From Minisyncoccia bacterium (lineage in GTDB: Bacteria > Patescibacteriota > Minisyncoccia > Phycocordibacterales > CALRBL01), in assembly GCA_038230075.1 (NCBI GenBank), contig JBBRNV010000001.1:114667-178666 (forward strand): 64,000 bases of DNA, given 5' to 3'. Within the stretch, counting starts at the first letter, position 1; each line of letters starts with the position of its first letter. The position numbers and the translations under genes were made by a program. This document shows, piece after piece, positions 32,087 to 62,131 of the stretch. The notes beneath the pieces were generated by a model that did no database searches, was not told where the DNA came from, and was given only the letters and a program-made list of their open reading frames with translations.

Positions 32087-32314
32087 TGAAGACACTATAT
32101 AACAGTACTTACTACCCAACAACATACTTATCCACAAAAATTCACCAATTGTGCACAAGGACACGATTTGAGGAAAGTGAAAGTGAACGATCGTACATAG
32201 AAAAAAACAGCAGATATGTAGTTTGAGGTGAATTCGCAGGCTTTTGTTCCGCAAAGAACAAAGACCGAGGACTTAATGACAAACTACATATCTGCTGTTT
32301 TTTGTGATCTCAGA

Positions 32315-33781
32315 CTATCGTGGGCGCATTGTTGGGAAGAAAATCACTTCCTTAATATTCTTTGTATTTGTAAGAAGCATGACCAGTCTATCGATTCCGA
32401 TACCAACTCCTCCCGCAGGTGGCATACCGTGTTCCATTGCTTCAATAAAATCTTCATCTAAACTTTGTGCGTCTTTCTCGCCCTCAGCCTTACTCTTCTC
32501 CTGTTCCTCAAATCGAGATCGTTGATCAATAGGATCATTCAACTCTGAAAAAGCCTTAACGAGTTCAACTCCTGCAATTACAAGTTGAAATGCTTCAACG
32601 AATTGTGGTGCTGATTTTTTTCGTTTCGCCAAAGGAAGATATTCTGCGGGATAATCGATAATGAAGGTTGGTTGAATCAGTGCCGGTCGTGCTGATTTTT
32701 TATACAAATTATCAAGCATTTTTGCACGTGAGTCTCCTTTATCTACCGTTATTCCATATTCATGGCACTTTTCAGTAAGATCAGCGAGTGAGATAGTTTC
32801 TGGATCAGATATTCCTGCAAATTTATTGAGAAGACTGAAATATGAAACAACACTAAATTCTTTTGAGAAATCAACACTGTTTTCTCCAAGTTCGAGAACT
32901 TCAGTCTTTAGAACATCTTTAACGATTCTTCGAATCATTTGCTCAGTAAATTTCATTTGTTTATCGGCATCGCTATATGCCTCGTAGAATTCGAGCATGG
33001 TAAATTCTGGATTATGTGTCATATCAATTCCTTCATTTCTAAAATCTCGAGCGATTTCATATACTTTTGGAAAACCAGCTACGAGCATTCTCTTGAGATA
33101 TAACTCATCAGAAATTCGAAGATATAAACGCATATCGAGTGCGTTGTGATGTGTTACAAAAGGTTCAGCTGAAGCTCCTCCATATAAAGGTTGTAGAGCA
33201 GGAGTTTCAACTTCTAAATACCCTGCTCCGTCGAGAATAGTTCTAATTAGTGTAACTATTTTTGATCGAACAATGAAGCGTTCTCGAACTTCATCTGCCA
33301 TGAGTGCATCAAGATATCGTTTTCGGAATCGTTCTTCAACATCTTGTAGGCCGTGCCATTTTTCAGGAAGTGGAAGTAAGCTCTTTGAGAGCATGTTCCA
33401 TGTTTGAACTTGAACAGTCTGCTGACCTCGTTTTGTAGTAAACAATGTTCCAGTTACTTCGACAAAATCTCCAATGTCGACAGTGTCATTAAACAAGTCG
33501 AACATTCCTTCAACTGATTCATCTTTTTTAAGGAGTGATTGAAAGCGAGCAGTTCCATCGAAAAGATCAAAGAAGATTAATCCTCCTTGTGCACGAAATG
33601 ACATAACTCGCCCCCCAACAGTTACTGATGTTTGAGCTGCTGACCATGTATCGAAATTCTTCTGAGTGTCGAGAAGTGAATGTTCAATGTGAGATGTTGC
33701 AGGATATGCATCAACTCCTTTTTCTTTTAAAAGGCTCAGTTTTGCAAGCCGTGATTGTCGTTGTTCTTCAAGAGATGCCAT
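32315..33781 (-). CDS. lysS: Lysyl-tRNA synthetase (class II)
   Basis: N-terminal OB anticodon-binding domain and class II motifs 1-3. 488 aa. Confidence 0.95.
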   Translation of the reverse strand: MASLEEQRQSRLAKLSLLKEKGVDAYPATSHIEHSLLDTQKNFDTWSAAQTSVTVGGRVMSFRAQGGLIFFDLFDGTARFQSLLKKDESVEGMFDLFNDTVDIGDFVEVTGTLFTTKRGQQTVQVQTWNMLSKSLLPLPEKWHGLQDVEERFRKRYLDALMADEVRERFIVRSKIVTLIRTILDGAGYLEVETPALQPLYGGASAEPFVTHHNALDMRLYLRISDELYLKRMLVAGFPKVYEIARDFRNEGIDMTHNPEFTMLEFYEAYSDADKQMKFTEQMIRRIVKDVLKTEVLELGENSVDFSKEFSVVSYFSLLNKFAGISDPETISLADLTEKCHEYGITVDKGDSRAKMLDNLYKKSARPALIQPTFIIDYPAEYLPLAKRKKSAPQFVEAFQLVIAGVELVKAFSELNDPIDQRSRFEEQEKSKAEGEKDAQSLDEDFIEAMEHGMPPAGGVGIGIDRLVMLLTNTKNIKEVIFFPTMRPR

Positions 33782-43766: not shown

Positions 43767-45302
43767 ATGAAAACAACGAGCACAGCGAAAGAAAGCCCCG
43801 TAAAGAAGATTGGTTTTTTTATAAAAACACTACGAGAGGATAAAGGAATTACACAGGCAGATTTTGCGAAGGCACTTTCAACTTCACAGAGTGCTGTTGC
43901 TCGAATGGAAAAAGGCGAACAAAACTTTAGTACCGAGCAACTCTCAAAAATAAGTAAGGTGCTTGGACGAAGTTTAATGCGACTTGAAAACTCAACAGAT
44001 GATTTTGAAATTAATGGTGGAAAAAAACTATCAGGAACGATTCAAACTAACTATTCAAAAAACGGCGCGCTCGGGCTTTTTTGCGCCGCACTATTAAACA
44101 AAGGAATCACTACTCTTCATGGAATTCCTCGAATTGAAGAAATTGCTCGTATTGTTGAAATCTTTGAAAGTATCGGTGTAGAAGTTAAGTGGATGGGAAA
44201 AAACACAGTGTGCATAACTCCTCCAAAAGTTTTCTGTCTTGAAAACATGAATCATGGTGCAGCCGCTCGTATTCGATCTGTTCTTATGATGATTGGATCG
44301 CTCACTCACCACATTCCTTCATTTTCAATCCCTCATGCTGGTGGATGCAAAATGGGACAACGAACAATTGCTGCCCATCGATATGCACTTGAAGCACTTG
44401 GCATTAATATTTCAACCAAATCAGACAGATACACTATTAATCGAAAGAAATTTAAACCTGCAGATGTGGTTATGTACGAAGCAAGTGACACCGCAACAGA
44501 GAACGCCATTATTGCAGCTGCACTTATTCCTGGAAAAACCACTCTTCGTTTTACTCCTCCAAATTATCAGGTGCAAGAAGTATGTTTCTTTTTAGAAAAA
44601 TGTGGGGTGAAGATTGAAGGAGTTGGATCAACTACTCTAACAATTCATGGCATCAAAGAAATTGACATGACAATTGAGTACACCAACAGTGAAGATCCTG
44701 TTGAATCAATGATGTTTTTGTCTGCTGGAATTGTGACTGAATCAACACTAACGGTTACTCGATGCCCCATCGAATTTCTTGCTGTTGAACTTTTAAAATT
44801 AGAAAAGATGGGTTTGAAATATACCTCAACAAAAGAATATTTCGCAGAGAATGGAAGAACAAAATTGGTAGACATCACTATTCATCCATCAAAACTGAAA
44901 GCGCCGTTAGACAAAATTCATGCTCTGCCATATCCTGGAATTAATACTGACAACCTTCCCTTTTTTGTTCCTATCGCAACCTTGGCTGTTGGAACAACAC
45001 TTATTCACGACTGGATGTGGGAAAATCGCGCAATCTATTTCACTGAACTTAACCGCCTCGGTGCAAATGTGGTTTTAGCAGACCCTCACCGAGTATTTGT
45101 CCAAGGTCCAACCAAACTTCGAGGATCTCAAATCGTATGCCCTCCAGCGCTTCGTCCTGCCATGATTATCTTAATCGCCATGCTTGCAGCTGAAGGAACC
45201 TCGATTTTGCGAAACGTATATGCTATAAATCGCGGATATGAAGATATTGCAGAACGCCTCAACTCGATTGGAGCAGACATCAGCATCATCAGCGACTTCT
45301 AA
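43767..45302 (+). CDS. murA: XRE-family HTH domain fused to UDP-N-acetylglucosamine 1-carboxyvinyltransferase (MurA)
   Basis: Residues ~15-70 are IKTLREDKGITQADFAKALSTSQSAVARMEKGEQNFSTEQLSKISKVLG, a Cro/C1-type HTH. The remaining ~436 aa are MurA, including the active-site Cys in GGCKMGQR. Confidence 0.85.
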   Translation: MKTTSTAKESPVKKIGFFIKTLREDKGITQADFAKALSTSQSAVARMEKGEQNFSTEQLSKISKVLGRSLMRLENSTDDFEINGGKKLSGTIQTNYSKNGALGLFCAALLNKGITTLHGIPRIEEIARIVEIFESIGVEVKWMGKNTVCITPPKVFCLENMNHGAAARIRSVLMMIGSLTHHIPSFSIPHAGGCKMGQRTIAAHRYALEALGINISTKSDRYTINRKKFKPADVVMYEASDTATENAIIAAALIPGKTTLRFTPPNYQVQEVCFFLEKCGVKIEGVGSTTLTIHGIKEIDMTIEYTNSEDPVESMMFLSAGIVTESTLTVTRCPIEFLAVELLKLEKMGLKYTSTKEYFAENGRTKLVDITIHPSKLKAPLDKIHALPYPGINTDNLPFFVPIATLAVGTTLIHDWMWENRAIYFTELNRLGANVVLADPHRVFVQGPTKLRGSQIVCPPALRPAMIILIAMLAAEGTSILRNVYAINRGYEDIAERLNSIGADISIISDF

Positions 45303-50269: not shown

Positions 50270-50680
50270 TTATTTATTGATCAAAGCATCTCTCTCAACA
50301 ATTGCCTTAGCAAGTGTTGAGTTAGTATTTAAATACTCTATATAGAGTATATGTGATTTATTGATATCGAGGGTTGATTTTGGTGATTGTGGCTCTTCTT
50401 GAAGTGACAACACCTGAAGACTTTGAGCACCTGTTGTTGTTGCCCCATCTTGAGGTCGTACATAGTACACGTGTCGAAGTGTGACCGTGTCACTAAATGG
50501 AAGCCACCATCCCTTTCCAAAATAAACTTGACCGTTATCAATAAAAACAGCTTTCCATGAAGATGCACTTGAAATCAAGCCAACAAAAAACCACAAAATA
50601 AGAACCACAATAGCAATCAAACTGATTCTTGAGATAAGTGGTTTTTTTAAAAAAACAAAGATGTTGTTGATGTATTTCAT
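50270..50680 (-). CDS. Small membrane-anchored protein, unknown function (last gene of the surface locus)
   Basis: N-terminal TM. Co-directional with the giant gene and immediately 3' of it. Confidence 0.45.
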   Translation of the reverse strand: MKYINNIFVFLKKPLISRISLIAIVVLILWFFVGLISSASSWKAVFIDNGQVYFGKGWWLPFSDTVTLRHVYYVRPQDGATTTGAQSLQVLSLQEEPQSPKSTLDINKSHILYIEYLNTNSTLAKAIVERDALINK

Positions 50681-50721: not shown

Positions 50722-53700
50722 CTATGTTGATGAACCTGTATCTGACGGCGCAGCCGGAGCTGTATCTACTGGTGCGGAAGGTGTCGAATCTGCAGGTGTT
50801 GTCGCAGGTGTCGCAGGTTCGGGCGTTGGCGTTGGATCAGTAACCGTTTGCTGAGTGTTATTAACCGGAGTATCAGCAGATGGAGTTATCACAGGATCAT
50901 TCGAATGATCGACAGGTGAAGTGGTTGTTCCAGACGATGTTGCATTTCCAGGATCTGATCCATTAATAGTTGTTGAGGCAGATGTTGTTGTTGAAGTTTC
51001 TACAGGCGCTGCAACATAATCACCATCAGATGAAACATTCGTTATTGTTGTAGTTCCAACTGAAGATGTTGTGGAGCTATTATCTTCAATAGTAATAATT
51101 GGAGGTGTACTTGTTCCTGTTGAGCTAGCATTCGCAGTTTCTGGGTCGTACGTATTGATCATGAACCAACTGAAGGTGACGACATTTGTTTGAGATCGTG
51201 CCATTCGAACCGTGAATCCTACTCCTGGAGTAATGTCTGTTACATAAAGAGGACTATCCACGGCTGATGTTGGAGTGATTGAAATCAAACTTCCTTCTGT
51301 CACTTGTCGATTTGAAATTGTAACCATAAATTGTCCTTCAGGAATACTTCCACTTCCAGCAATTTGCTGAGAACCTCGAGGAATGGTTAGTGTTCCACCA
51401 GGAATAACAGTTAAGTCTTTTACAAAGAGTGATGAAATATTAGCAACAAGTGCAGACATTTTATTAGTGATGAAGTATGCCAAGTTATCTGCTTTATTGA
51501 GAACCATGAATGCGATGTCACTGATTGCAGTATTTACTGATTCAACAAATTCTCCAACGGTTCCATTTGTTCCTGAAGATAATTCATCAGTTACTGCAGC
51601 TGCATCTGTTCGAGCTTGCTGAATATCATTCCATGTCACACTTTCGACACCGAGAAACACTGTTACTGATGGATCTTCTCCTTCAGCTCCACTATATGGT
51701 GACAACGCTCGTCCAAGAACTCGTCCTGGTTTTGTTGCTTTTGCTCCAACTCCACCAACTGTTGAAGCGGTGATGTAATCTCCAATTGCAATTGGACCAT
51801 TTTCTAAGCTCACCGTTACTGGTACTCGTCCAGCAAGAGCAATAGGAATTGCACGTGCACCGTCAATTAGTGTTGAACTCTGACTTAATCTGAAAGCAGG
51901 ATCTTTTGAATACACTCCAATAACATATGCATCATCTTTTCCAACTGATTTTCGAACCATTCCTTTTTCTCGCGTATCAATACTTACAATGTCGCCTGCG
52001 GCCAAACTGTCGTCTCGAGTTGGATAATCTTCAGCAACGTCGTACGCACCAATAGCAGAGGTTATTCCGTGACTGAAAACAAACTTACCGTTGTTAGTAT
52101 TTCCTGTTCCATCACTATTTGTGTTTCCTGCAACAAACTTAATATCACCGTAGTTTTTAAATCCGTTAAGTTCTGACTCTGAAGTTGTTGCTGCAGCATT
52201 AAATTCAAGAGCATATGATTCAGAGTCTGCCACGTTATAACTAAACACTTGTGTTGCACTTACTTTTTCTGTTCCAACAAACAAACTGTCTCCAGCTTGA
52301 ACGAGTGCAGTGACACCGTCGGCTGTTGTTGAAGCATTTACTTTTGAAACATATCCAGCGGTACTACTTGAAACTCGAGTCCAATTTGTTCCACCAGAAT
52401 ACTTATACAAAATCGCGCCGGCTGGTTCGTATATACCCACATACAATGAATCTTTATATATACTCATCGCAGATACTCTGTCGAGGTTTTGTGTAGCAAC
52501 ATTTGTTTCAATCGTACCAACAGTTGAACTTGAGACTTGTGTAAATGAGTTTCCAGCCGCTACTGTTCCGTCGAATCGAACCACTTGTGCAGTATTTGCA
52601 CCATCGTCGATACCAATATACGTAGCACCATTGTACACAGCCATGGTTCTAATATTGTCGACAGCAGTTGAGGCGCCGAATGTTCCTACTGCACTATTCA
52701 TCAAAAGCATCGGGGTTGCAGCGTTCGAACCTTCATATCGATATACCGCAGCGGAGTTCAATTTTGAAACACCGACATATAGCGCTCCATTATCAATAGA
52801 CATCGCATTAACACTATTCACAAGAGTAGCGGCTCCGAATGTTCCCGCGCCTGTTGCAACAACGGTGTTGTTTACACGTGTCCATTGTGTAGACGAAGAA
52901 GTATTCAATCCGTTAAATCGATACACTTCAGCACCACCTGTTTTAGCGGTTCCGATATAAAGTTGTCCATTATAGATGGCCATCGCACTGACAGAGTCAA
53001 TTGCAGTTGTTGTTGCATTTCCTCCGATTGATCCGGCGGTCGTACTTGAAACTTTCGTCCATGTACTATTTCCTTCGTATCGATACACTTCAGCGCCTCC
53101 AGTTTTAGCGGTTCCGATATAAAGTTGTCCGTTATACACCGCCATTGAAGCAATTGAGGCAATGGTGTTCGTTTGTGTACCCGATCCTCCGATAACTCCA
53201 GCTGTTGTACTTGAAACTTTTGTCCAACCTGTTCCTCCGTTGTATCGATACACTTCTGCAGCTCCTGTTTTCATCACACCGGCATATACTGATCCGTTCC
53301 AAACAGCCATGGCTGTTGTAGTAGAGAGTGATGCAGTTCCTCCTGATTGAATAGTTCCTGTAGTATTGATTAAATCAGTATAAGTTCCTGTAGCGTTAAC
53401 ACGTTTTCCAATAAGCACATTTCCTCCTTCAATAGTTAATCGTTCAGTTGGAGATGTTGTTCCAATTCCAACATTACCTGTAGTTCCATCCGTGAAAATA
53501 CTGGTGACGTTTGAAGTGGTACTGAATACGCTAAATGTTCCAGCGGTAGTCAGTGTTTGTGCTGCTGATGTTGTTCCGATACCAACCGAACCATTAGTAC
53601 CATTAAAATAAATATTTGTTCCACTCGTTGTCCATTGTGTTCCTGAACCGTTTGTTGCAACAAGGGTTCCGTTTTGATACAAGTTTCCTGTGAAGTTAAT

Positions 53701-56700
53701 GTCTCCAGCAACACCAAGTTTAAATGTTGCTGTTGGAGTTGTTGTACCAACTCCAACTGTTCCGTTTGCCAATACTGTCAACAACGTTGAACCTGTTGTT
53801 GATGCAACAGTGAAGAGTGATGTTGTTGGTGCGGTTGTCGTTCCTTGAATCGTAAAGACAGATGAAGTTGATGTGGTTCCAAGTGAAATATTTCGAGCGA
53901 TCAAATCTCTCCATGTTCCGAGTGTTCCATTATTAACTTCAAGTATTCCTTGGCCAGTTCTTCCAAGACCTGTTGCAACTTGGAATGAGTAATTTGAACC
54001 ATCATTTGAGAATGTTACCAATCCGTTACTTGTAACTTGTACTGCCGCAGAACCTCCGGCAAATCCAGCACCAATGCCAAAAAACGGAGCATTGTTAAAT
54101 GACAACGTTTTATTGTATACCTGCGTAGAGTAACTTCCTCCGTTCACGTAGACAAGTGTCACATCCCAAGAACTTACACCGTCCGAAATAAATTCATATC
54201 GAACAAAGTTTCCTGTTCCTGATGGTCCTTGAAATTGTGTGTTTGTATCAGTTGTTAACCCTCCCAACGTATCAGAACCTCCTCTTATAAATTTAAGGTA
54301 ATTTGAAATTGTTGGTTTACCATTTGAATAGACATAAAGCTTTCGTCCATTTGTATAACTACTAGCAGCTGGGAGAGTAATAGTTCGAATAGCAGTAAAT
54401 GCCGCCGTAAGATTCAAAACATCTGTTGTTGTTGCAACTGTTTTGTTAGCGTCTCCCATTGTATCAAGTGTATTGATATCGTATGCGTTTGAAACAGCAA
54501 CAGCTGCACCTCCACCGTTTCCTTTTAGTACAGAACTTGTTGTTGGGATAATTCCAAGTGATGAGGTTGCAACCCATTGAGTAACAGATCCTGTAGTTTG
54601 AAGTATTTGTCCGTTTGATCCTGCTGAACCATTTGCTTTAAATGCGCCAGTTAAGTTGAATGAGCCGGTGACTGAGAGTGTGTCTGATGGAGATGAGGTA
54701 CCAATCCCCACATTACCTGCAAAATAGTTGTTACCAGAACCATAAGTTCTAATAATTCCGTTTGTTGTATCTTTCAAATCAAGTTGACCACTTGTAAAAA
54801 GATTCATTACGTCACTTCCATTTGAAGCATCTCCTGATGAATCACTGTTTCTCCAGCTAAATTTACCTACTCCTGGGTTTCCCGGATCCATATACATTGC
54901 AAATGTCCACTCTTGAATTCCGAATCCCCATCGTTGACCTCCACCGCCGCTGTAAAGATTTATTTTGTCTCCAAGGGATGTGGCGAAAGTAAGAGGTGCA
55001 TCAGGACTAGTAATACCAATCCCCACATTTCCGTTTTGAAGAATCGTAAATAAATTTAATCCTGTTGAAGAAGCAACTGCAAAAGGATTGAGGCCTGCTG
55101 AGCCCTTCACGTTAAATGTTGTTGCTGAAGATGTTGCATTCACTCCTGCAACTGTTCCGTCGTCGATGAATAATCCTGTTGAAAGTGTTGAAGCTCCCGT
55201 CCATCGAGCAAGGTATCCGTTGGTTCCTCCTGATAATCCAGCACCACCAGAAATTCCAAGGGAAGAAGTGGCAACCCATTGTGTTCCTGATCCTGTAGTC
55301 TGAAGAACCATTCCACTTGATCCTGCTGATCCGTTTGCTTTGAAAGCGCCGGTTAAGTTGAATGAGCCGGTGACTGAGAGTGTGTCTGATGGAGTTGACG
55401 AACCAATTCCAAAGTTTCCATTTTGAAGAAGGGTTAAAAGGTGAGTTCCTGTTGATGATGCGATGATGAAAGGATTTGTTCCTCCAGTTCCAGTAAGGGC
55501 AAGTTGCGCAATTGGAGACGATGTTCCGATTCCAACATTTCCCTGAACAATGAGTCCATTTGTTGGTGCAGCGATTCCCGCATATGACGCTCCAATACCT
55601 GCTCGCCCATTTAAACTGAGAGTGTTTGTGGTGGTGGTTGTTCCAACCCCAATTGCTCCACCAGTACTTATAACAAATCTGTCGACATAGCCCGTACCAT
55701 CATATGATTGGAAGGTAAGATTTCCAGTAGGATGAACACTTCCTTGAATTGGAACAAGAAACGCCCTAAACGACACTGGTGAACTTGCTGGATCAAATGT
55801 TTCGTAACCATTACCCATCCATGTGATTGCAGGAGAATATTGTTGAAAGCCGTTTGTTGCGACAGTTGTGTTTGTTAATGCAATTCCATTTGTTGCAGCG
55901 CCAAGAGTTGGTGAAGTTGTTGTGCCTAATCCGTCAGATCGAATTTCAAGTTTTGCATAAAATGGATTTGTAATTCCAATTCCAACATTTCCATTTTGAG
56001 CAACAGTAAACAAACTCAAACCAGTCGATGATGCAACATTAAAAGCATTAACTCCGGCATTACCCGCAACATTAAATGTCGTTGTTGAAGATGTTGCGTT
56101 GATTCCAGAAACAGTTCCGTTGTCGATGAATAATCCTGTCGATAATGTTGAAGCTGATGTCCACCGAGCAACATAGCCAAGTGTTCCTCCTGAGAGCGAT
56201 GCTCCAATACCGAGTGATGATGTTGAGACCCATTGTGTTCCTGTTCCTGTTGTTTGAAGTATTTGTCCGTTTGATCCTGCTGAACCATTAGCTTTGAAGG
56301 CTCCGGTTAGATTCATCGATCCCACAACAGTAAATTTGTCTGATGCAGTAGTTGTACCTACTCCAACATTTCCGCCTGCTGTTGCCAAACTAATTTTTCC
56401 GTACACACCACCAGCAACTCCAGCATTAATTACTACATTTCCTCCGAAGGCACCGAATCCCCCGGCACCTCCTCCTGTAATATTTACATTTCCTCCGTAA
56501 GCACTCGATCCACTGAGTCCTGCTGTAAAGTTTAAATCTCCTCCTGTACCTCCTGATGCTGATGCATCACCTCCCGTTAAATTAATGGCACCTCCTGTAC
56601 CATCACTTCCTCCTCCTGCTTTAATATCAATATATCCTCCGGCACCAGAAGCTGCATTTCCTGATCTTAAAATAATATTTCCTCCAGACACTGCACCAGA

Positions 56701-58602
56701 TGCACCGTATACAGCAAGAGCGTCGGGAACAAATCCACCAATTCCTCCTGAGGTAGGTCCAACGAGCGAGAGTGTTGCGTTAGGAGATGAAGAGCCGATG
56801 CCAACATTTCCATTTGCAAGAACTGAAACGTATGATGCACCTGATGATGAAGCAATGCTTAACAATGAAACATTTGGCGAAGTAGATGCTCCTTGAATAT
56901 TAAATAAAGACACCCCGGTTGAAGTACCAATATTTACTGTTGCACCTTTCAAAAGCAGATTTCTATTTACTCCTGTTCCAAGAGCGGTTACACCAACCTC
57001 TAAAACATTCCCATTCCAGTTAATTGAACCTCGTTCGTAGTTCGTTGTGTTTGTGTATGCATTATATAATTCCAATCCTCCAGATGAGATGGTTGATCCC
57101 GACCCATCTGTAAATCTGACACCCGCACCGAAGGTTGCTGCAGGGTACATAAAATTCCCACTTAAGGCAAATGGATTTCCTGAAATTCTTCCACCTGATA
57201 TATTTCCAGTATTCGTTGTAAAGTTTCCAGTTACTGAGACGTCTCCGTTTTGTTCAATCGTAAATAAGTTTGTTCCCGTCGATGATGCAACGGCAAATGG
57301 GTTGAGCCCTGCTGTTCCTCGAATATTAAATGTCGTTGTTGCACTTGTTGCATTAATTCCTGCAACTGTTCCGTCGTCGATGAATAATCCTGTTGAAAGT
57401 GTTGAAGCTCCCGTCCATCGAGCAAGGTATCCGTTGGCACCTCCTGATAAACCAAACCCCAATGATGATGTCGACACATATGTTGGAATTCCTGTAGGTC
57501 CCGTTGACTGAAGAAGTTGTCCTGCAGTTCCTGCAGAACCACCAGCGTTAAGTGGTCCACTGAAAGAAAGTCCTCCAGAAAACGTTCCTGTTGCCGCTGT
57601 TAAATTTCCGCCATTTAAGTTAAGTGGTGTTGCTCCTCCTGATGCCAAGAAGCCAAGGTTGATTAGGCCTTGTCGGAGATCAGTGTTGTTTGCTAATTGA
57701 ACAATAGGAGTTGCACCAAAGAAACCGAGTTTTTGATTTGTTGCGGTACCAAGTTGTGTTCCTGTGCCTGTTCCTAACACAATATTTTTTGCATCAGCGA
57801 TTGAGAGACCATTGCTTGCAGTGATGAGTCCTGCAGCAGATAAGGCATTTGAGAATGTTGAAGTTCCTGTTGTTGATGCTGAGGTGATAATTCCAGTGAA
57901 ATACGCATCACCATTCACTGTTAACTTTGAAAAAGGCGTCGACGACCCCACCCCCACATTCCCATTGTTCAAAAGTGACAACACTGATGTTGTTGCTGGT
58001 CCGAAAAACTCAGCGAGCTTTCCTGCTCCGTTTTGTTGCACTTGAAAAAAGGTTGCAGCAGATGATGTTGAATTAAGTACATCACTTCGAAGAAATTGTT
58101 GATCGCTGTATCCGTTCAGTGAGAGTGCAGTGAGCGCAGAAGGAGCTGATGCAAGTGCTTTTCGTGGTGACATTTCTCCATCCCACGCAGGAGATGATGT
58201 TCCCCCAATGTTCACTGAGAGATAGAGTTGTTGATTGAAGTTAATTGAAGCAAGAGAAGTGACATTTCCAAGAAGAACACTAAAGAGTCCGTTTGTGACG
58301 GTGACTTTGTTTGCACTGGTTCGACTTTCAACCCATAAACACTGGGCGTCTCCAGAACATGTTCCTTGAGAAGAACCGACCGAGGTTGATGACGCATAGA
58401 GTTTGAACTCAATGTTGTATGTTCCGTTTGGAACAGCAACACTTGATGAGGCGTATAGCTTTCCTTGGTAGTTGATGGTTTGGGGGGCTGCTGCTTCAAC
58501 TTTTGCAACAGAAAAAGACGTTCCCAGTAAGCCGAAGGCTGGCCCAAAAATGAGAGAAAAGATGACAGAAAAAACAGTAATTTTGAAGGCGTGCAACTTC
58601 AT
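50722..58602 (-). CDS. Giant secreted repeat protein (2626 aa), putative surface adhesin/fibre
   Basis: 7.9-kb uninterrupted ORF with a signal peptide and Gly/Thr/Ser/Asn-rich beta-repeat modules. One ~100-aa module occurs at least three times (LSGGTNGYLARWTGASTLSTGLFIDDGTVAGINATS...). There are ~6 propeller-like repeats (AEVYRYEGNSTWTKVSSTTAG) and a Pro/Thr-rich C-terminal tail. Confidence 0.85.
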   Translation of the reverse strand: MKLHAFKITVFSVIFSLIFGPAFGLLGTSFSVAKVEAAAPQTINYQGKLYASSSVAVPNGTYNIEFKLYASSTSVGSSQGTCSGDAQCLWVESRTSANKVTVTNGLFSVLLGNVTSLASINFNQQLYLSVNIGGTSSPAWDGEMSPRKALASAPSALTALSLNGYSDQQFLRSDVLNSTSSAATFFQVQQNGAGKLAEFFGPATTSVLSLLNNGNVGVGSSTPFSKLTVNGDAYFTGIITSASTTGTSTFSNALSAAGLITASNGLSIADAKNIVLGTGTGTQLGTATNQKLGFFGATPIVQLANNTDLRQGLINLGFLASGGATPLNLNGGNLTAATGTFSGGLSFSGPLNAGGSAGTAGQLLQSTGPTGIPTYVSTSSLGFGLSGGANGYLARWTGASTLSTGLFIDDGTVAGINATSATTTFNIRGTAGLNPFAVASSTGTNLFTIEQNGDVSVTGNFTTNTGNISGGRISGNPFALSGNFMYPAATFGAGVRFTDGSGSTISSGGLELYNAYTNTTNYERGSINWNGNVLEVGVTALGTGVNRNLLLKGATVNIGTSTGVSLFNIQGASTSPNVSLLSIASSSGASYVSVLANGNVGIGSSSPNATLSLVGPTSGGIGGFVPDALAVYGASGAVSGGNIILRSGNAASGAGGYIDIKAGGGSDGTGGAINLTGGDASASGGTGGDLNFTAGLSGSSAYGGNVNITGGGAGGFGAFGGNVVINAGVAGGVYGKISLATAGGNVGVGTTTASDKFTVVGSMNLTGAFKANGSAGSNGQILQTTGTGTQWVSTSSLGIGASLSGGTLGYVARWTSASTLSTGLFIDNGTVSGINATSSTTTFNVAGNAGVNAFNVASSTGLSLFTVAQNGNVGIGITNPFYAKLEIRSDGLGTTTSPTLGAATNGIALTNTTVATNGFQQYSPAITWMGNGYETFDPASSPVSFRAFLVPIQGSVHPTGNLTFQSYDGTGYVDRFVISTGGAIGVGTTTTTNTLSLNGRAGIGASYAGIAAPTNGLIVQGNVGIGTSSPIAQLALTGTGGTNPFIIASSTGTHLLTLLQNGNFGIGSSTPSDTLSVTGSFNLTGAFKANGSAGSSGMVLQTTGSGTQWVATSSLGISGGAGLSGGTNGYLARWTGASTLSTGLFIDDGTVAGVNATSSATTFNVKGSAGLNPFAVASSTGLNLFTILQNGNVGIGITSPDAPLTFATSLGDKINLYSGGGGQRWGFGIQEWTFAMYMDPGNPGVGKFSWRNSDSSGDASNGSDVMNLFTSGQLDLKDTTNGIIRTYGSGNNYFAGNVGIGTSSPSDTLSVTGSFNLTGAFKANGSAGSNGQILQTTGSVTQWVATSSLGIIPTTSSVLKGNGGGAAVAVSNAYDINTLDTMGDANKTVATTTDVLNLTAAFTAIRTITLPAASSYTNGRKLYVYSNGKPTISNYLKFIRGGSDTLGGLTTDTNTQFQGPSGTGNFVRYEFISDGVSSWDVTLVYVNGGSYSTQVYNKTLSFNNAPFFGIGAGFAGGSAAVQVTSNGLVTFSNDGSNYSFQVATGLGRTGQGILEVNNGTLGTWRDLIARNISLGTTSTSSVFTIQGTTTAPTTSLFTVASTTGSTLLTVLANGTVGVGTTTPTATFKLGVAGDINFTGNLYQNGTLVATNGSGTQWTTSGTNIYFNGTNGSVGIGTTSAAQTLTTAGTFSVFSTTSNVTSIFTDGTTGNVGIGTTSPTERLTIEGGNVLIGKRVNATGTYTDLINTTGTIQSGGTASLSTTTAMAVWNGSVYAGVMKTGAAEVYRYNGGTGWTKVSSTTAGVIGGSGTQTNTIASIASMAVYNGQLYIGTAKTGGAEVYRYEGNSTWTKVSSTTAGSIGGNATTTAIDSVSAMAIYNGQLYIGTAKTGGAEVYRFNGLNTSSSTQWTRVNNTVVATGAGTFGAATLVNSVNAMSIDNGALYVGVSKLNSAAVYRYEGSNAATPMLLMNSAVGTFGASTAVDNIRTMAVYNGATYIGIDDGANTAQVVRFDGTVAAGNSFTQVSSSTVGTIETNVATQNLDRVSAMSIYKDSLYVGIYEPAGAILYKYSGGTNWTRVSSSTAGYVSKVNASTTADGVTALVQAGDSLFVGTEKVSATQVFSYNVADSESYALEFNAAATTSESELNGFKNYGDIKFVAGNTNSDGTGNTNNGKFVFSHGITSAIGAYDVAEDYPTRDDSLAAGDIVSIDTREKGMVRKSVGKDDAYVIGVYSKDPAFRLSQSSTLIDGARAIPIALAGRVPVTVSLENGPIAIGDYITASTVGGVGAKATKPGRVLGRALSPYSGAEGEDPSVTVFLGVESVTWNDIQQARTDAAAVTDELSSGTNGTVGEFVESVNTAISDIAFMVLNKADNLAYFITNKMSALVANISSLFVKDLTVIPGGTLTIPRGSQQIAGSGSIPEGQFMVTISNRQVTEGSLISITPTSAVDSPLYVTDITPGVGFTVRMARSQTNVVTFSWFMINTYDPETANASSTGTSTPPIITIEDNSSTTSSVGTTTITNVSSDGDYVAAPVETSTTTSASTTINGSDPGNATSSGTTTSPVDHSNDPVITPSADTPVNNTQQTVTDPTPTPEPATPATTPADSTPSAPVDTAPAAPSDTGSST

Positions 58603-58669
58603 GAATTTACATCACAAATTATAGCACGTAAAATTTAAAAAAACCTTAGTTATCAACAGAAAATCGAAA

Positions 58670-59635
58670 TCAGAGAACGTATCGAACGAAGACAAAACTG
58701 AGTATAAAAATAGTCAAAATAAGGAGTAAATATTCGAGCACATTTTGATACACAAATGTCATCAAAAGTGACCACTTCGAAAGAGGGGTTGACTGATAAA
58801 GAAATTTATATTGCATTGTACTTGTAGGAGTGATGATCATTGTTCCAGTTTGTGTACTTCGTAGGCTAGAAGTTGAGTTTCTTAAATTTAAATCGAAAAA
58901 TGACGTGTCAACACCAAATCCATTTTGATCTATAGTATTAAATGTTTTATCTTGACTCGATATTGAGATATTTGAACTAGAAGTAGACGTATCAGTATTT
59001 TGTTTCATAATTTTACTCACAAAAACTGATGCATATGAACCCCAAGAATATTTTCCTGTAGATGGATCTTTTACAAACAATGAGTAAAAGTAGCGAATTC
59101 CATTTTCGACATCAGTATCAAAAAATGTTGTCCCCCTTCCTTCATATACAACAATTCCTTCATCAAGAGGACCTGTAGGGAACCCTGTCGTACTTCGAAG
59201 TATTCGAACAAATGGATTTGGCTGAAGAAATGAAGGTACGAGAGGATACTCATTCAACCTTGGAGGTGTCCACAACAAAAGAACATTGCCGAAAAAGTTA
59301 TATGCATAGAAATCTTTTGCCATGTTTAAACTTTGTCGTATCTGTTCCTCACTTCCTCTTGAAGTTCCTCCTATGGGTGCAGATTGAATAGGTGCTTCAG
59401 GAATTATAGAAGGAGTAGAAGTAGAACTTGTTGCAACAGCTTCGCAATCTGATGGACACGAATCGAATACTTCTCCAGCATCACACATGAGATCGTAATT
59501 ACATTGAACAACATTCAACTGCACATTTATTGAGTTAATATTTCTTGCTTGTGCCGAAACTTGCATTGGTGAATGAAGAAAAAGTAAAAAAAATCCTATT
59601 GTAGTGATTAAAATTGTAGAAAATATTCTACTCAT
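58670..59635 (-). CDS. Secreted protein with C-terminal TM anchor, unknown function
   Basis: Signal peptide, Cys cluster (CNYDLMCDAGEVFDSCPSDCE), Ser/Thr-rich region, C-terminal hydrophobic anchor. Confidence 0.6.
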   Translation of the reverse strand: MSRIFSTILITTIGFFLLFLHSPMQVSAQARNINSINVQLNVVQCNYDLMCDAGEVFDSCPSDCEAVATSSTSTPSIIPEAPIQSAPIGGTSRGSEEQIRQSLNMAKDFYAYNFFGNVLLLWTPPRLNEYPLVPSFLQPNPFVRILRSTTGFPTGPLDEGIVVYEGRGTTFFDTDVENGIRYFYSLFVKDPSTGKYSWGSYASVFVSKIMKQNTDTSTSSSNISISSQDKTFNTIDQNGFGVDTSFFDLNLRNSTSSLRSTQTGTMIITPTSTMQYKFLYQSTPLSKWSLLMTFVYQNVLEYLLLILTIFILSFVFVRYVL

Positions 59636-60406: not shown

Positions 60407-61384
60407 TTACTTTCGTCTGATGTCAAAGTTTCTGAAAACGTATCTAAATATAACCAACATGAGAATGATCAGAATAAATATCGCGAGCAAGATTTTCCAT
60501 GGAATAACAACAAAGGTAATTGTTTTTGAATCAATTTCATCTTTATGACCTGGGTTATTATATGCTTTATGTAATTCTAAATGAGCTCGATAAATACCGA
60601 AGAGCCCTGATCCATCAATGTTTACTTGCCGATATCGTTTTGATTGAGGAAGAGAATAGTATGCATCAATAGGAGCACTTGCTACCGTTTTACCAAAAAT
60701 ATTGTTAACGGTTACTTGTCCGTATGGTGCGAGGTGTACATTTCCTGTGTTTGAAAACATTGTTTCAAAGCCGAAAGTTCCTGGTTCGTAAATAAAATGA
60801 TGTGGAGTGATTCTAAAGTCTTCTACCTTTCCTTCTTCTTTTGCTTCTCCGTTAACTCGAATAAAAAGAAGTGAGCCTGCACGGGAAACCGCATGAGTCG
60901 TTGCCCCTTCACTTCCACCCTTCGCTTGCCCTATCTCATTTGAAACAATAATAGAAGTGTAAAAACCACCAGGTGCCGCGTCTGCAGGAACTTTAATCGT
61001 TACGGGAATAGTTATTCTCTCACCAAATTTTAAATTAAATTGAGTAACTTCAGGAATGATACTGTCTCGAATTGAAAGAGGGTTTTTATCTGCTCCCATC
61101 AGTTGAATAGGGTTATCAATTTGATCAGTACCACCAAAGTCTTCAAGGTCAATTTTAAAGGTCGTAGGCTCTGTCACACGGCTTGTGACAGTTATTTCTT
61201 TAGTAACAGTCTCTCCTGGGTTAATAAAGATTTCTTGTCGAGCAGGACCAACCACAAAGTCTTGTAAAGGGTCTACTTTTCCCATATTAAAAATAGTAAC
61301 TGCTTGAGTAAATTGAGGAATCAAAAACGCACCAAGTAGTAATAGAGAAATGCGCCTTGATGCGCCGTAGCCAATTGATTTCAT
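60407..61384 (-). CDS. Secreted Ig/beta-sandwich-like protein with C-terminal TM anchor and basic tail
   Basis: Signal peptide, beta-rich ectodomain, C-terminal TM (ILLAIFILIILMLVIF) plus RYVFRNFDIRRK. The layout recalls the DUF916-type partners of WxL proteins. Confidence 0.65.
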   Translation of the reverse strand: MKSIGYGASRRISLLLLGAFLIPQFTQAVTIFNMGKVDPLQDFVVGPARQEIFINPGETVTKEITVTSRVTEPTTFKIDLEDFGGTDQIDNPIQLMGADKNPLSIRDSIIPEVTQFNLKFGERITIPVTIKVPADAAPGGFYTSIIVSNEIGQAKGGSEGATTHAVSRAGSLLFIRVNGEAKEEGKVEDFRITPHHFIYEPGTFGFETMFSNTGNVHLAPYGQVTVNNIFGKTVASAPIDAYYSLPQSKRYRQVNIDGSGLFGIYRAHLELHKAYNNPGHKDEIDSKTITFVVIPWKILLAIFILIILMLVIFRYVFRNFDIRRK

Positions 61385-61471: not shown

Positions 61472-62131
61472 TTATTGTGCGATAGCGGTAGCAGTAATTG
61501 TTGCGTTATATGTTCCTGATGGAATATAGATTCCTTTCTGCTCAACTGCGTAACAAACTGTTGCTGTTTCTCCAGCTGTTGTAGTAGTTGCCGTTGATGA
61601 GGCGATTGCTCTATCAGTAGTTTTAAAGTTTTGATATTTAAGAGTCGTACTTGGATCATTTCCGGTACCTCCTGAACACACTGCTCCGGTTCCCCATGTT
61701 GCTGTTGGAACTTTTGTTCCAAAAGCAGAGTATCCAAATACTGCAGTTCCTGCACCTGGATTCCATAATTCTGGAACATCAGTACCTCCTGGTGCATAGT
61801 TTGCAATTGATGACGTTGCGCTATTCATAGCTGGTGTAGAACTTGCCCGAACATAGAGAATGTATCCTCCTCCGGCATTTGTTCGAACTGTCCATGAAGA
61901 TGTTGCAACTGCAGTATTTGCAACCGAGTCAAGATTTCGACTCATTGTTGTATTTGTTGCTGCTGTGATTGTGATGTCTGAAAGCACTGTTAATGTAACA
62001 ACGATAGTGTTAGAAGCGCTTGTTGCTGCTGCAATTGCAGTATCGACCTGAAGAGATTGATATGCAAACGGACTAAGTATTGTTAGTACTAATGCGAAAG
62101 CAACAATTTCATAAAACTTTCTTAAATTCAT
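61472..62131 (-). CDS. Small secreted beta-rich protein, paralog A (SCPU-pilin-like / WxL-like)
   Basis: Signal peptide, an alternating hydrophobic/Thr N-terminal strand (TIVVTLTVLSDITITAAT), an SSWTV motif, a Cys pair and the C-terminus ...TYNATITATAIAQ. Confidence 0.65.
   Translation of the reverse strand: MNLRKFYEIVAFALVLTILSPFAYQSLQVDTAIAAATSASNTIVVTLTVLSDITITAATNTTMSRNLDSVANTAVATSSWTVRTNAGGGYILYVRASSTPAMNSATSSIANYAPGGTDVPELWNPGAGTAVFGYSAFGTKVPTATWGTGAVCSGGTGNDPSTTLKYQNFKTTDRAIASSTATTTTAGETATVCYAVEQKGIYIPSGTYNATITATAIAQ

Follow-up and report, generated by a model that had tools for sequence, protein, structure and literature searches.

The 64,000-nucleotide window analyzed here (contig JBBRNV010000001.1, positions 114,667 to 178,666, assembly GCA_038230075.1) comes from a Minisyncoccia bacterium and carries on its minus strand a giant gene of 2,626 codons, preceded by a small cassette of genes for secreted and membrane proteins. 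We propose that the giant protein is a Sec-exported, MAT-like subunit of a long, phage-tail-fiber-like surface fiber of a bacterium of the Candidate Phyla Radiation (CPR, or Patescibacteria), a reading to which we assign a probability of roughly 60%. The likeness to tail fibers, which a first-pass annotation of this DNA had suggested, is borne out by an N-terminal domain resembling that of the MAT fibers of Bdellovibrio, by shaft motifs, by a match to the tail fiber family phrog_9942 and by a C-terminal domain of the type found in phi29 gp12.

The gene (50722..58602, minus strand) starts with ATG and runs through 2,626 codons to its stop codon without any internal stop, in agreement with the earlier description of a single 7.9-kb open reading frame (ORF) encoding 2,626 amino acids (aa). 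The protein is rich in Gly, Thr, Ser, Ala and Asn, has two Cys residues, and is identical to one protein in NCBI (P0001). Scans of the whole protein against Pfam, NCBIfam and PHROGs, as well as phmmer against the PDB, returned nothing; only searches with segments and profiles, together with structure analyses, were informative. They divide the gene into the following parts (coordinates in nucleotides, nt):

58492..58602, minus strand: signal peptide (aa 1-37), predicted to be cleaved between VEA and AAP, an A-x-A-type site
58108..58491, minus strand: N-terminal beta-rich domain (aa 38-165; INYQGKL..DGEMSPRK..VP.A), MAT-N-like according to the NF053851 profile
53329..58107, minus strand: mosaic shaft (aa 166-1758), rich in Gly, Thr, Ser and Asn
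52198..53328, minus strand: predicted seven-bladed beta-propeller (aa 1759-2135; AlphaFold2 model)
52042..52197, minus strand: linker (aa 2136-2187) up to the predicted autocleavage site between Y2187 and D2188 (nt 52041/52042)
51463..52041, minus strand: Peptidase-G2-like, putative intramolecular chaperone, composed of a beta domain (aa 2188-2322) and helices to aa 2380
51157..51360, minus strand: C-terminal beta-sandwich (aa 2415-2482), modeled with a predicted local distance difference test score (pLDDT) of 74-88
50725..51156, minus strand: low-complexity tail rich in Thr, Ser and Pro (aa 2483-2626)

Among 5.8 billion proteins searched, 108 proved to be homologues. They are without exception giants of 1.5 to 4.5 thousand aa and nearly all come from metagenome-assembled genomes (MAGs) of the CPR, the non-CPR source names being Acidoferrales and Terracidiphilus, with one protein each. 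The closest relatives belong to MAGs of Parcubacteria or Paceibacteria. The pattern across the homologues is mosaic, with a conserved N-terminal domain and a conserved C-terminal domain on either side of a variable middle that is shared patchily or not at all.

An exported protein with a probably MAT-like N-terminal domain and shaft

The sole hydrophobic segment of the giant protein lies at aa 1-32. In the family alignment, the Ala at position -1 of the predicted cleavage site is nearly invariant and conservation begins directly after it, as would fit cleavage by signal peptidase. The hydrophobic segment and the conserved A-x-A-type site thus back the earlier claim that the protein is secreted. 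The N-terminal region (aa 1-250) is common to about 70 of the 108 homologues, where it occupies their own N-termini. The NCBIfam profile Bdello_MAT_N (NF053851) matches aa 30-119 of the query with an E-value of 6e-5 and 22.8 bits, compared to a curated cut-off of 60, and it matches 19 of 21 relatives, at best with 5.8e-10 and in all cases under the 60-bit cut-off. As judged from sequence conservation, the conserved anchoring end of the giant family is the N-terminus and not the C-terminus.

Eight motifs of the form [VF]G[IV]G..P...[LF] are spread across aa 216-1722. They resemble the published capping-loop consensus of the MAT fibers (V-G-G/N-pi-x-x-P-x-x-x-L), with a spacing that is not identical. 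A profile aligns the stretch NGNVGIGTTTP..KL.V.GN with the Bdellovibrio MAT protein Bd2439 (PDB 8ol4; E 0.078), and phrog_9942 matches the shaft with an E-value of 4e-5.

The MAT fibers of Bdellovibrio are trimeric, tail-fiber-like adhesins composed of a signal peptide, a conserved N-terminal domain of about 130 aa, a beta-helical shaft and swappable tips, and a self-cleaving S74 chaperone is present in 13 of the 21 (Caulton et al. 2024, PMC10769870). The CPR giants appear alike in the order of signal peptide and beta-rich N-terminal domain and in the V-G-x-G..P...L-type loops of a long putative shaft. They are alike in the mosaic of swappable distal domains on a conserved base, in a split into subfamilies that have, or lack, a C-terminal chaperone of the cleaved type, and in that the bacterium using them is small and lives on other bacteria. 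They differ in that they are two to four times longer, that the chaperone of the query is of the G2 type and not S74, and that the match of its N-terminal domain stays under the curated cut-off. In addition, the CPR giant is tied to a WxL/Pam-like cassette, which is unreported for the MAT genes of Bdellovibrio, and the trimeric state and surface location of the CPR giant are predictions.

A C-terminal domain related to the chaperone of phi29 gp12

A profile of 22 family sequences (A1) matched phi29 gp12 in the PDB (6qz9/3gqh; E 1.2e-3). In this alignment, D2188-V-A-E2191 of the query corresponds to D692-F-A-E695 of gp12, and both the Asp and the Glu are invariant in all 22 sequences. In gp12, the cut lies between S691 and D692; the chain of 3gqh, which represents the cleaved fragment, begins at the aligned Asp, and the uncleaved 'pre-mature' form 3suc reads DFAQ at the same place. 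The Pfam family Peptidase_G2 (PF11962) matches eight of the 22 relatives, with a best E-value of 3.8e-6, and does not match the query itself at E <= 10. A structure model made for the G2-like domain separately reaches a pLDDT of 85. Foldseek ranked 3gqh and 3suc first and second among the PDB structures, and the modeled domain matches the fold of the gp12 C-terminal fragment. The structures ranking after gp12 are cement and decoration proteins of phages (BB1, Pam3 gp6, T1, gpD/SHP). In BFVD, 59 viral proteins match the domain at E <= 1e-3 (best 2.6e-10), 'preneck appendage' and tail fiber proteins among them, and the C-terminal domain found no counterpart by tblastn in 50,697 phage records.

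The domain (aa 2188-2340) is found in 57 of 109 family members, the query included, at a distance of 133-817 aa from their C-termini. Seven members hold it twice, and the D.AE motif is kept in 58 of the 64 copies. Peptidase S74, the chaperone that the first-pass annotation had in mind, is carried by 22 of the 108 relatives, and two hold both types. In the query, S74 (PF13884) matches none of the segments of aa 1-2520 at E <= 10, nor the tail (aa 2521-2626) in the whole-protein scan at E <= 1, which alone covered it. The domain found here is related to the autocleaving chaperone of phi29 gp12 and Peptidase G2 instead.

In phi29 gp12, the C-terminal domain acts as an auto-chaperone that is cleaved off after the trimer has folded, and chains without it aggregate (PMC3357383). 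The query resembles gp12 (PF11962; PDB 3gqh, 3suc) in the D-x-A-E at the start of the domain, in the fold of a beta domain plus helix, which gave the top PDB match, and in the position of the domain C-terminal to the functional part of the fiber or spike. It differs from gp12 in that it stays under every Pfam threshold, that about 300 further aa (helices, beta-sandwich and tail) follow the domain, that the domain comes after a propeller and a short linker and not after a beta-helix, and that its source is a bacterium and not a phage.

Long helices are predicted at aa 2324-2380, with low confidence. The beta-sandwich, which is common to six relatives (P0002-5, P0014 and P0036), shows a weak match to K1-lyase_C (PF24146; E 1.2e-3), under the cut-off. 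The last residues (aa 2507-2626) consist of 25% T, 17% S, 13% P and 10% A, and the C-terminal tail contains neither a transmembrane (TM) segment nor a sorting motif. The Pro/Thr-rich C-terminal stretch of about 120 aa described in the first pass is therefore real, but its role as a cell-wall-spanning stalk is unlikely, since the chaperone module precedes the tail and the tail is without TM segment or sorting motif. If the G2-like domain cleaves, the last 439 aa, this 'stalk' included, would be discarded.

The main rival of a fiber with a cleaved chaperone is an uncleaved fiber, in which the G2-like domain works only as a trimerization or 'cement-like' clamp, and the beta-sandwich and the tail stay on the mature protein. 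The tail, possibly glycosylated, may then be the distal end or a spacer, which is nearer to the view of the first-pass annotation. In favor of such an arrangement, the fold also resembles phage decoration and cement proteins that do not cleave, the Pfam families XM1_gp53 and Phage_cement match in relatives, a conserved beta-sandwich and, in relatives, 133-817 aa follow the domain, and seven relatives have two copies of it. We consider it doubtful nonetheless, given that the D-x-A-E motif, invariant in the 22 aligned sequences and kept in most copies of the family, aligns with the catalytic residues of gp12 and with the start of its cleaved fragment. Moreover, with no C-terminal anchor the tail cannot be a wall-spanning stalk.

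A predicted seven-bladed propeller ahead of the chaperone

In an AlphaFold2 model of aa 1690-2520, based on nine homologues, aa 1759-2135 form seven four-stranded blades with a pLDDT of 80-93. The first-pass annotation had recognized propeller-like repeats, and these are real, although the structure model places seven blades at aa 1759-2135 and not six at about aa 1700-2000. Its suggestions of Kelch and two-component propellers found no Pfam support in any segment. In the Foldseek comparison to the PDB, the best match of the propeller was the EPTP domain of LGI1 (TM-score 0.70), and the list included Photorhabdus PLL fucose lectins, WD40 proteins and PL25 lyases. The propeller is common to about eight homologues.

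The order of propeller, stalk and cleaved chaperone has a precedent in the endosialidase of phage K1F (PMC3357383). Each chain has one beta-propeller, and in both cases the spike is, or would be, trimeric; a short stalk comes next, and then a C-terminal chaperone that is, or would be, cleaved off. The propeller of the endosialidase differs in being a six-bladed sialidase whose sequence is unrelated to that of the query, and its chaperone is S74.

The K1F endosialidase and phi29 gp12 are also the models for a different reading of the giant protein, namely that it is a depolymerase spike in which the propeller or another segment of the shaft is a glycoside hydrolase or lyase degrading a polymer of the host surface. 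Chaperones of the G2 and S74 types typically come after enzymatic tailspikes, the Foldseek list has the GH74 enzyme OXG-RCBH, GH43 enzymes and PL25 ulvan lyases, and the weak K1-lyase_C match points in the same direction. However, what the propeller matches best are binding modules (LGI1 EPTP and PLL fucose lectins) and generic WD40s, with 9-15% identity, no catalytic family was found by sequence, and a conserved active-site pattern was not identified. We therefore judge a depolymerase to be unlikely as the explanation of the protein. An enzymatic head is possible within the fiber that we propose, as the two are compatible and not exclusive.

Module duplication and probable gene conversion within the shaft

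The shaft contains internal repeats and an insert, as follows:

57232..57612, minus strand: repeat module copy 1 (aa 331-457)
55963..56373, minus strand: repeat module copy 2 (aa 744-880)
55003..55419, minus strand: repeat module copy 3 (aa 1062-1200), containing an 80-nt tract identical to copy 1
54550..54717, minus strand: half-module (aa 1296-1351)
53923..54549, minus strand: insert (aa 1352-1560), with a module of about 100 aa (TLPAAS..R.GSDT.NG..SDGVSKW)

By self-comparison of the protein, the module of about 100 aa that had been counted at least three times occurs in three copies with an extra half-unit. Its core (QWV.TSSLG..GG..GY.ARWT.ASTLSTGLFID.GTV.G.NATS...LFT..QNGNVGIG) lies at aa 361-457, 779-880 and 1097-1200, and the copies share 70-78% protein identity. 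Together with the preceding half ('FNLTGAFKANGSAGS..QWV.TSSLG'), it makes up the full units of about 100-140 aa listed above.

At the DNA level, we identified maximal exact repeats of 80 nt (55144-55223 and 57358-57437), 43 nt (54650-54692 and 55352-55394) and 38 nt (54596-54633 and 56252-56289). Exact repeats had thus been correctly reported, at coordinates that were slightly out of register (the literal pairs match in 19 of 78 and in 13 of 43 positions). The long direct repeats of the 64-kb window are all inside the giant gene. The three module copies are 66-71% identical at the DNA level, and over the 80-nt tract copies 1 and 3 agree at every position. Given this divergence of the surrounding copies, and the synonymous differences of copy 2 from the tract, the identity over 80 nt exceeds by far what chance or protein constraint would give and has the look of a tract of intragenic gene conversion. 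The divergence of the copies, their common frame and the unique sequence between them, together with orthologues of 2301-2449 aa that are colinear with the giant at both ends, speak against an artefact of assembly.

The first-pass annotation had seen in these repeats the substrates of recombinational length or phase variation. Exact direct repeats, three of which are present here, speak for a programmed system of this kind, and the identical 80-nt tract within otherwise diverged copies implies that intragenic recombination has occurred in the past. However, the offsets between the exact repeats (2214, 702 and 1656 nt) are all multiples of three, and therefore recombination would shorten the fiber through in-frame deletions of 738, 234 or 552 codons and would not provide an ON/OFF switch. 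The 64-kb window holds neither a recombinase nor an invertible element, nor a second (silent) copy elsewhere. The closest orthologues are without the GYLARW module altogether, which indicates that copy number changes over evolutionary, and not demonstrably over population, time-scales. We found no evidence for programmed variation, which we deem very unlikely, and the repeats could at most yield in-frame length variants. The internal repeats are a record of module duplication and of at least one recent intragenic gene conversion, and not a demonstrated switching device. An origin of the repeats through a diversity-generating retroelement was dropped, as there is no copy outside the gene and no reverse transcriptase among the scanned ORFs, which are part of the ORFs of the window.

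The insert (aa 1352-1560) has no match among the 108 giant homologues. An exhaustive search of 1.84 billion representative proteins detected its module in 179 representatives, mostly of 300-800 aa, and one representative of this insert family matches the tail spike of the Pseudanabaena phage Pam5 (E 2e-18). PDB searches with the insert and with the profile of the insert family returned no sequence-related structure.

A PamT-like and WxLIP-like cassette upstream of the giant gene

The giant gene is flanked by the following genes:

61472..62131, minus strand: w219, paralogue of w252 (31-35% identity to w252 orthologues over about 170 aa)
60407..61384, minus strand: w325, protein of the WxLIP/DUF916 family with signal peptide and C-terminal TM segment
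59632..60390, minus strand: w252, PamT-like, pilin-type protein (NCBIfam NF058579)
58670..59635, minus strand: w321, protein with signal peptide, Cys motif, FN3-like region and C-terminal TM segment, similar to PamR in architecture
50270..50680, minus strand: w136, protein of 136 aa with one N-terminal TM segment and no family assigned

The order along the minus strand is w219, w325, w252, w321, giant and w136, and the successive gaps up to the giant measure 87, 16, -4 and 67 nt. An extended -10-like element (TGCTATAAT; 58618..58626, minus strand) ends 15 nt before the ATG of the giant gene, as a perfect match to the consensus and no more than that, and the upstream sequence, read directly, shows no obvious Shine-Dalgarno motif. 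The element is a possible promoter of the giant gene's own, with a very short leader. A promoter and terminator scan was uninformative, since promoter-like sites were fewer than in shuffled sequences, and it returned no terminator between the giant and w136.

The 591 homologues of w252 form a large family. Its match to the NCBIfam family CPR_pilus_PamT (NF058579) has an E-value of 7e-13 and 48.5 bits, with a cut-off of 240, and marks the two as related and not as equivalogs. The same profile matches 24 of the 25 sequences of an alignment of 24 family members and the paralogue w219 (A4), down to 2.3e-15. Apart from PamT, w219 and w252 have no NCBIfam match, nor do they have a match in the PDB, and at E <= 0.01 they have no Pfam match, the WxL domain included. 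A profile of the w325 family matched Enterococcus faecium EfmWxLIP1 in the PDB (9i25; E 6e-12), and PF06030 (WxLIP_PGBD/DUF916) matches 17 of 27 family members, with no Pfam match for w325 alone. PDB searches with w321 and with the family profile of w252 returned nothing meaningful. Orthologues of w321 are present in three other loci (L001, L003 and L004), and the corresponding 507-aa protein in the cassette of a fourth (L086) has a weak fn3 match.

The claim that the giant belongs to its upstream locus is backed, as far as genetic coupling is concerned, by synteny of the six genes, by the frequency of the association and by gene fusions. The six-gene order is found in three other genomes (L001, L003 and L004), with 38-55% identity for five genes and about 27-29% overall for w321, and at least five further loci (L001, L003, L004, L012 and L024) have an orthologue of w136 as the next gene downstream of the giant. 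A scan of GTDB species representatives with one strict peptide pattern of the N-terminal domain, followed by a check with tblastn, yielded 340 confirmed loci; the best 80 of these 340 all come from MAGs that are CPR-labeled or unclassified. For 69 species-level loci, 4.5 kb or more of the sequence upstream was available. In 32 of these, a WxLIP-like gene of the same strand lies no more than 6 kb upstream, and in 30 the trio is complete. In four homologues (P0034, P0048, P0050 and P0059), a w321-like part is fused in frame before the giant N-terminal domain, and the fused loci, stop-to-stop ORFs included, are L014, L016, L023, L026, L033, L038, L041, L058 and L070. The fusions keep the TM helix and a signal-peptide-like segment, with a basic loop in between. 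At one locus (L086, 9254-13389), the four genes of the cassette, encoding 239, 363, 255 and 507 aa, have no giant downstream and are followed immediately by GAPDH, which identifies the cassette as an independent unit. Conversely, a Minisyncoccia MAG (L005, 5866-24476) has two giants in tandem (3536 aa and more than 3939 aa) with no PamT/WxLIP cassette.

In the pam operons of CPR bacteria, a 'tail fibre-like protein' is reported to be consistently co-localized with PamT, membrane-anchored chaperones and PamR, an FnIII protein anchored by a TM segment, and co-localization with ATP synthase is reported (Troman et al. 2026 preprint, 10.64898/2026.03.03.709456). The cassette described here likewise unites, in a CPR genome and beside a tail-fiber-like gene, a PamT-like protein, a membrane-anchored protein of the two-Ig-domain chaperone type and an FN3-like protein whose C-terminus holds a TM segment. 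With its signal peptide, C-terminal TM segment and membership in the two-Ig-domain WxLIP family, w325 may be comparable to PamC/D, the membrane-anchored PapD/FimC-like chaperones. The differences are that the present cassette is far smaller (four genes), that its similarity to PamT is distant (48 versus 240 bits), that no two-domain major pilins of the PamA/PamB type were identified, w219 and w252 being single paralogues of about 220-250 aa, that no ATP synthase is among the annotated neighbors of the giant, and that the lineage is Parcubacteria/Paceibacteria-like and not Saccharimonadia.

The WxL (Csc) clusters of Firmicutes combine small WxL proteins, large WxL proteins with host-binding domains, and WxLIP proteins of the structure DUF916-DUF3324-TM (PMC10599100). 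They are matched here by w325 as a WxLIP homologue and by the same cluster logic, in which small beta-sandwich proteins are joined by an Ig-fold partner anchored in the membrane and by a large protein for host binding, here a putative one. They differ in that no WxL domain was found in w219 and w252 (Pfam, E <= 0.01) or in the giant, and in that the giant is tail-fiber-like. Neither WxL nor DUF916 is mentioned in the Pam-pilus preprint (10.64898/2026.03.03.709456). The presence of a WxLIP/DUF916 homologue and a PamT-like protein in one small cassette hints that the Pam pili of the CPR and the WxL (Csc) clusters of Firmicutes are evolutionarily related.

Downstream of the giant gene lie the gene of the 136-aa TM protein, ClpB, tRNA-Tyr, tRNA-Trp, a DNA-alkylation repair gene and MiaA; cysteine desulfurase, MurB, ParB, TopA, DprA, SerRS and penicillin-binding proteins are encoded farther away, and neither phage structural genes nor ATP synthase are among the annotated neighbors. 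That the giant is a tail fiber gene of a prophage or phage remnant and not a cellular surface protein is barely credible, despite the tail-fiber-type modules throughout it (the phrog tail fiber matches, the G2-like domain that occurs in phage proteins and the insert family found in a cyanophage spike), and was rejected on the housekeeping context of the chromosome (ClpB, tRNAs, MiaA, cysteine desulfurase, MurB, ParB and TopA), given also the Sec signal peptide, the synteny with secreted and membrane proteins kept in dozens of CPR species, and the lack of any C-domain match in the phage records.

Two further features of the window were recorded. An ORF of 511 aa on the plus strand (43767-45302) joins an N-terminal XRE-type helix-turn-helix (aa 19-70) to a complete enzyme domain of the EPSP-synthase/MurA family (aa 83-498), an unusual fusion. 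An inverted repeat (32202-32303) with 48-nt arms of 79% complementarity and a 6-nt loop lies directly downstream of the gene of a class II aminoacyl-tRNA synthetase of the Asp/Lys/Asn type (32315-33781, minus strand).

A model of the fiber and the evidence that weighs against it

In the MAT-like fiber that we propose, the signal peptide would be removed after A37, as suggested by the sequence and the family alignment. The MAT-type N-terminal domain (aa 38-165) would then form the cell-proximal end and dock the fiber at the envelope, most likely on or beside the co-encoded membrane anchor w321, the pilin paralogues w219 and w252, and w325, to which synteny and fusions point. By homology of the N-terminal domain, the shaft motif and the C-terminal chaperone, three chains are expected to form together a beta-structured shaft of mosaic composition (aa 166-1758), with a length of about 50-70 nm if it packs as in the solved MAT fibers. 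The similarity of profile and fold to phi29 gp12 suggests that the G2-like chaperone (aa 2188-2380) nucleates this folding from the C-terminal side. It would subsequently cut itself between Y2187 and D2188 by means of the invariant Asp/Glu pair and free the last 439 aa, including the tail. The propellers (aa 1759-2135) would be left at the distal tip as a ligand-binding, or possibly glycan-cleaving, head that contacts the host cell; here both the fold and the function are predictions. The ORF, its repeats, the relationships of the domains, the synteny and the fusions are observations, and trimerization, cleavage, surface display, anchoring through the cassette and host binding by the propeller are the predictions of the model.

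Several observations weigh against this model. The query itself is above no curated threshold of Pfam, NCBIfam or PHROGs, the MAT-N and PamT matches are far under their cut-offs, and the match of the gp12 profile is marginal (E 1.2e-3). The fusions, because they keep both the TM segment and the signal peptide, indicate co-expression or co-insertion and do not prove a physical complex. Nor is the coupling obligatory, since only about half of the giants adjoin the cassette, which for its part is found without a giant in L086. Finally, the 439 aa after the cleavage site include a conserved beta-sandwich, relatives have 133-817 aa in this place, and a long and variable C-terminal extension, like the doubled domains, is unexpected for a disposable chaperone.

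A bolder proposal, which we hold tentatively and regard as rather improbable, is that the whole operon builds a composite attachment organelle of a kind not described so far. This would consist of a short donor-strand-type stalk or base of PamT/WxL-like subunits, a WxLIP chaperone anchored in the membrane, an FN3-like membrane tether and, on the base, a tail-fiber-like trimer of about 60 nm with propeller heads.

Meaning for the biology of the CPR

All building blocks of the giant and its cassette have known relatives, namely the N-terminal domain and shaft in the MAT fibers, the chaperone in gp12, the propeller head in the endosialidase, and the cassette in PamT and WxLIP. Compared to the literature that we searched, what appears to be new is the assignment of a family of CPR giant proteins to a MAT-type architecture, the use, by about half of the giants, of a chaperone of the G2 and not the S74 type, the tight connection by operon and fusions with a minimal cassette of the PamT/WxLIP/FN3 type in CPR of the Paceibacteria type, and the identity of the membrane protein of this cassette as a WxLIP homologue.

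Beyond a few Saccharibacteria in cultivation, little is known of the way in which CPR bacteria recognize their hosts and keep hold of them. By analogy with the known fibers, the giant protein is a plausible candidate for the structure by which CPR bacteria grip host cells. A previously unannotated CPR giant gene gains a testable architecture of base, shaft, propeller head and self-cleaving chaperone, in which precise residues (D2188 and E2191) and a domain (aa 1759-2135) are now singled out. The family is widespread (340 loci), and about half of the sampled loci place it within a conserved PamT-like/WxLIP cassette. If the composite organelle were real, it would link the Pam pili of the CPR, the WxL clusters of Firmicutes and the MAT fibers of Bdellovibrio, which have so far been treated apart, and it would be the main host-recognition device of Paceibacteria-type CPR.

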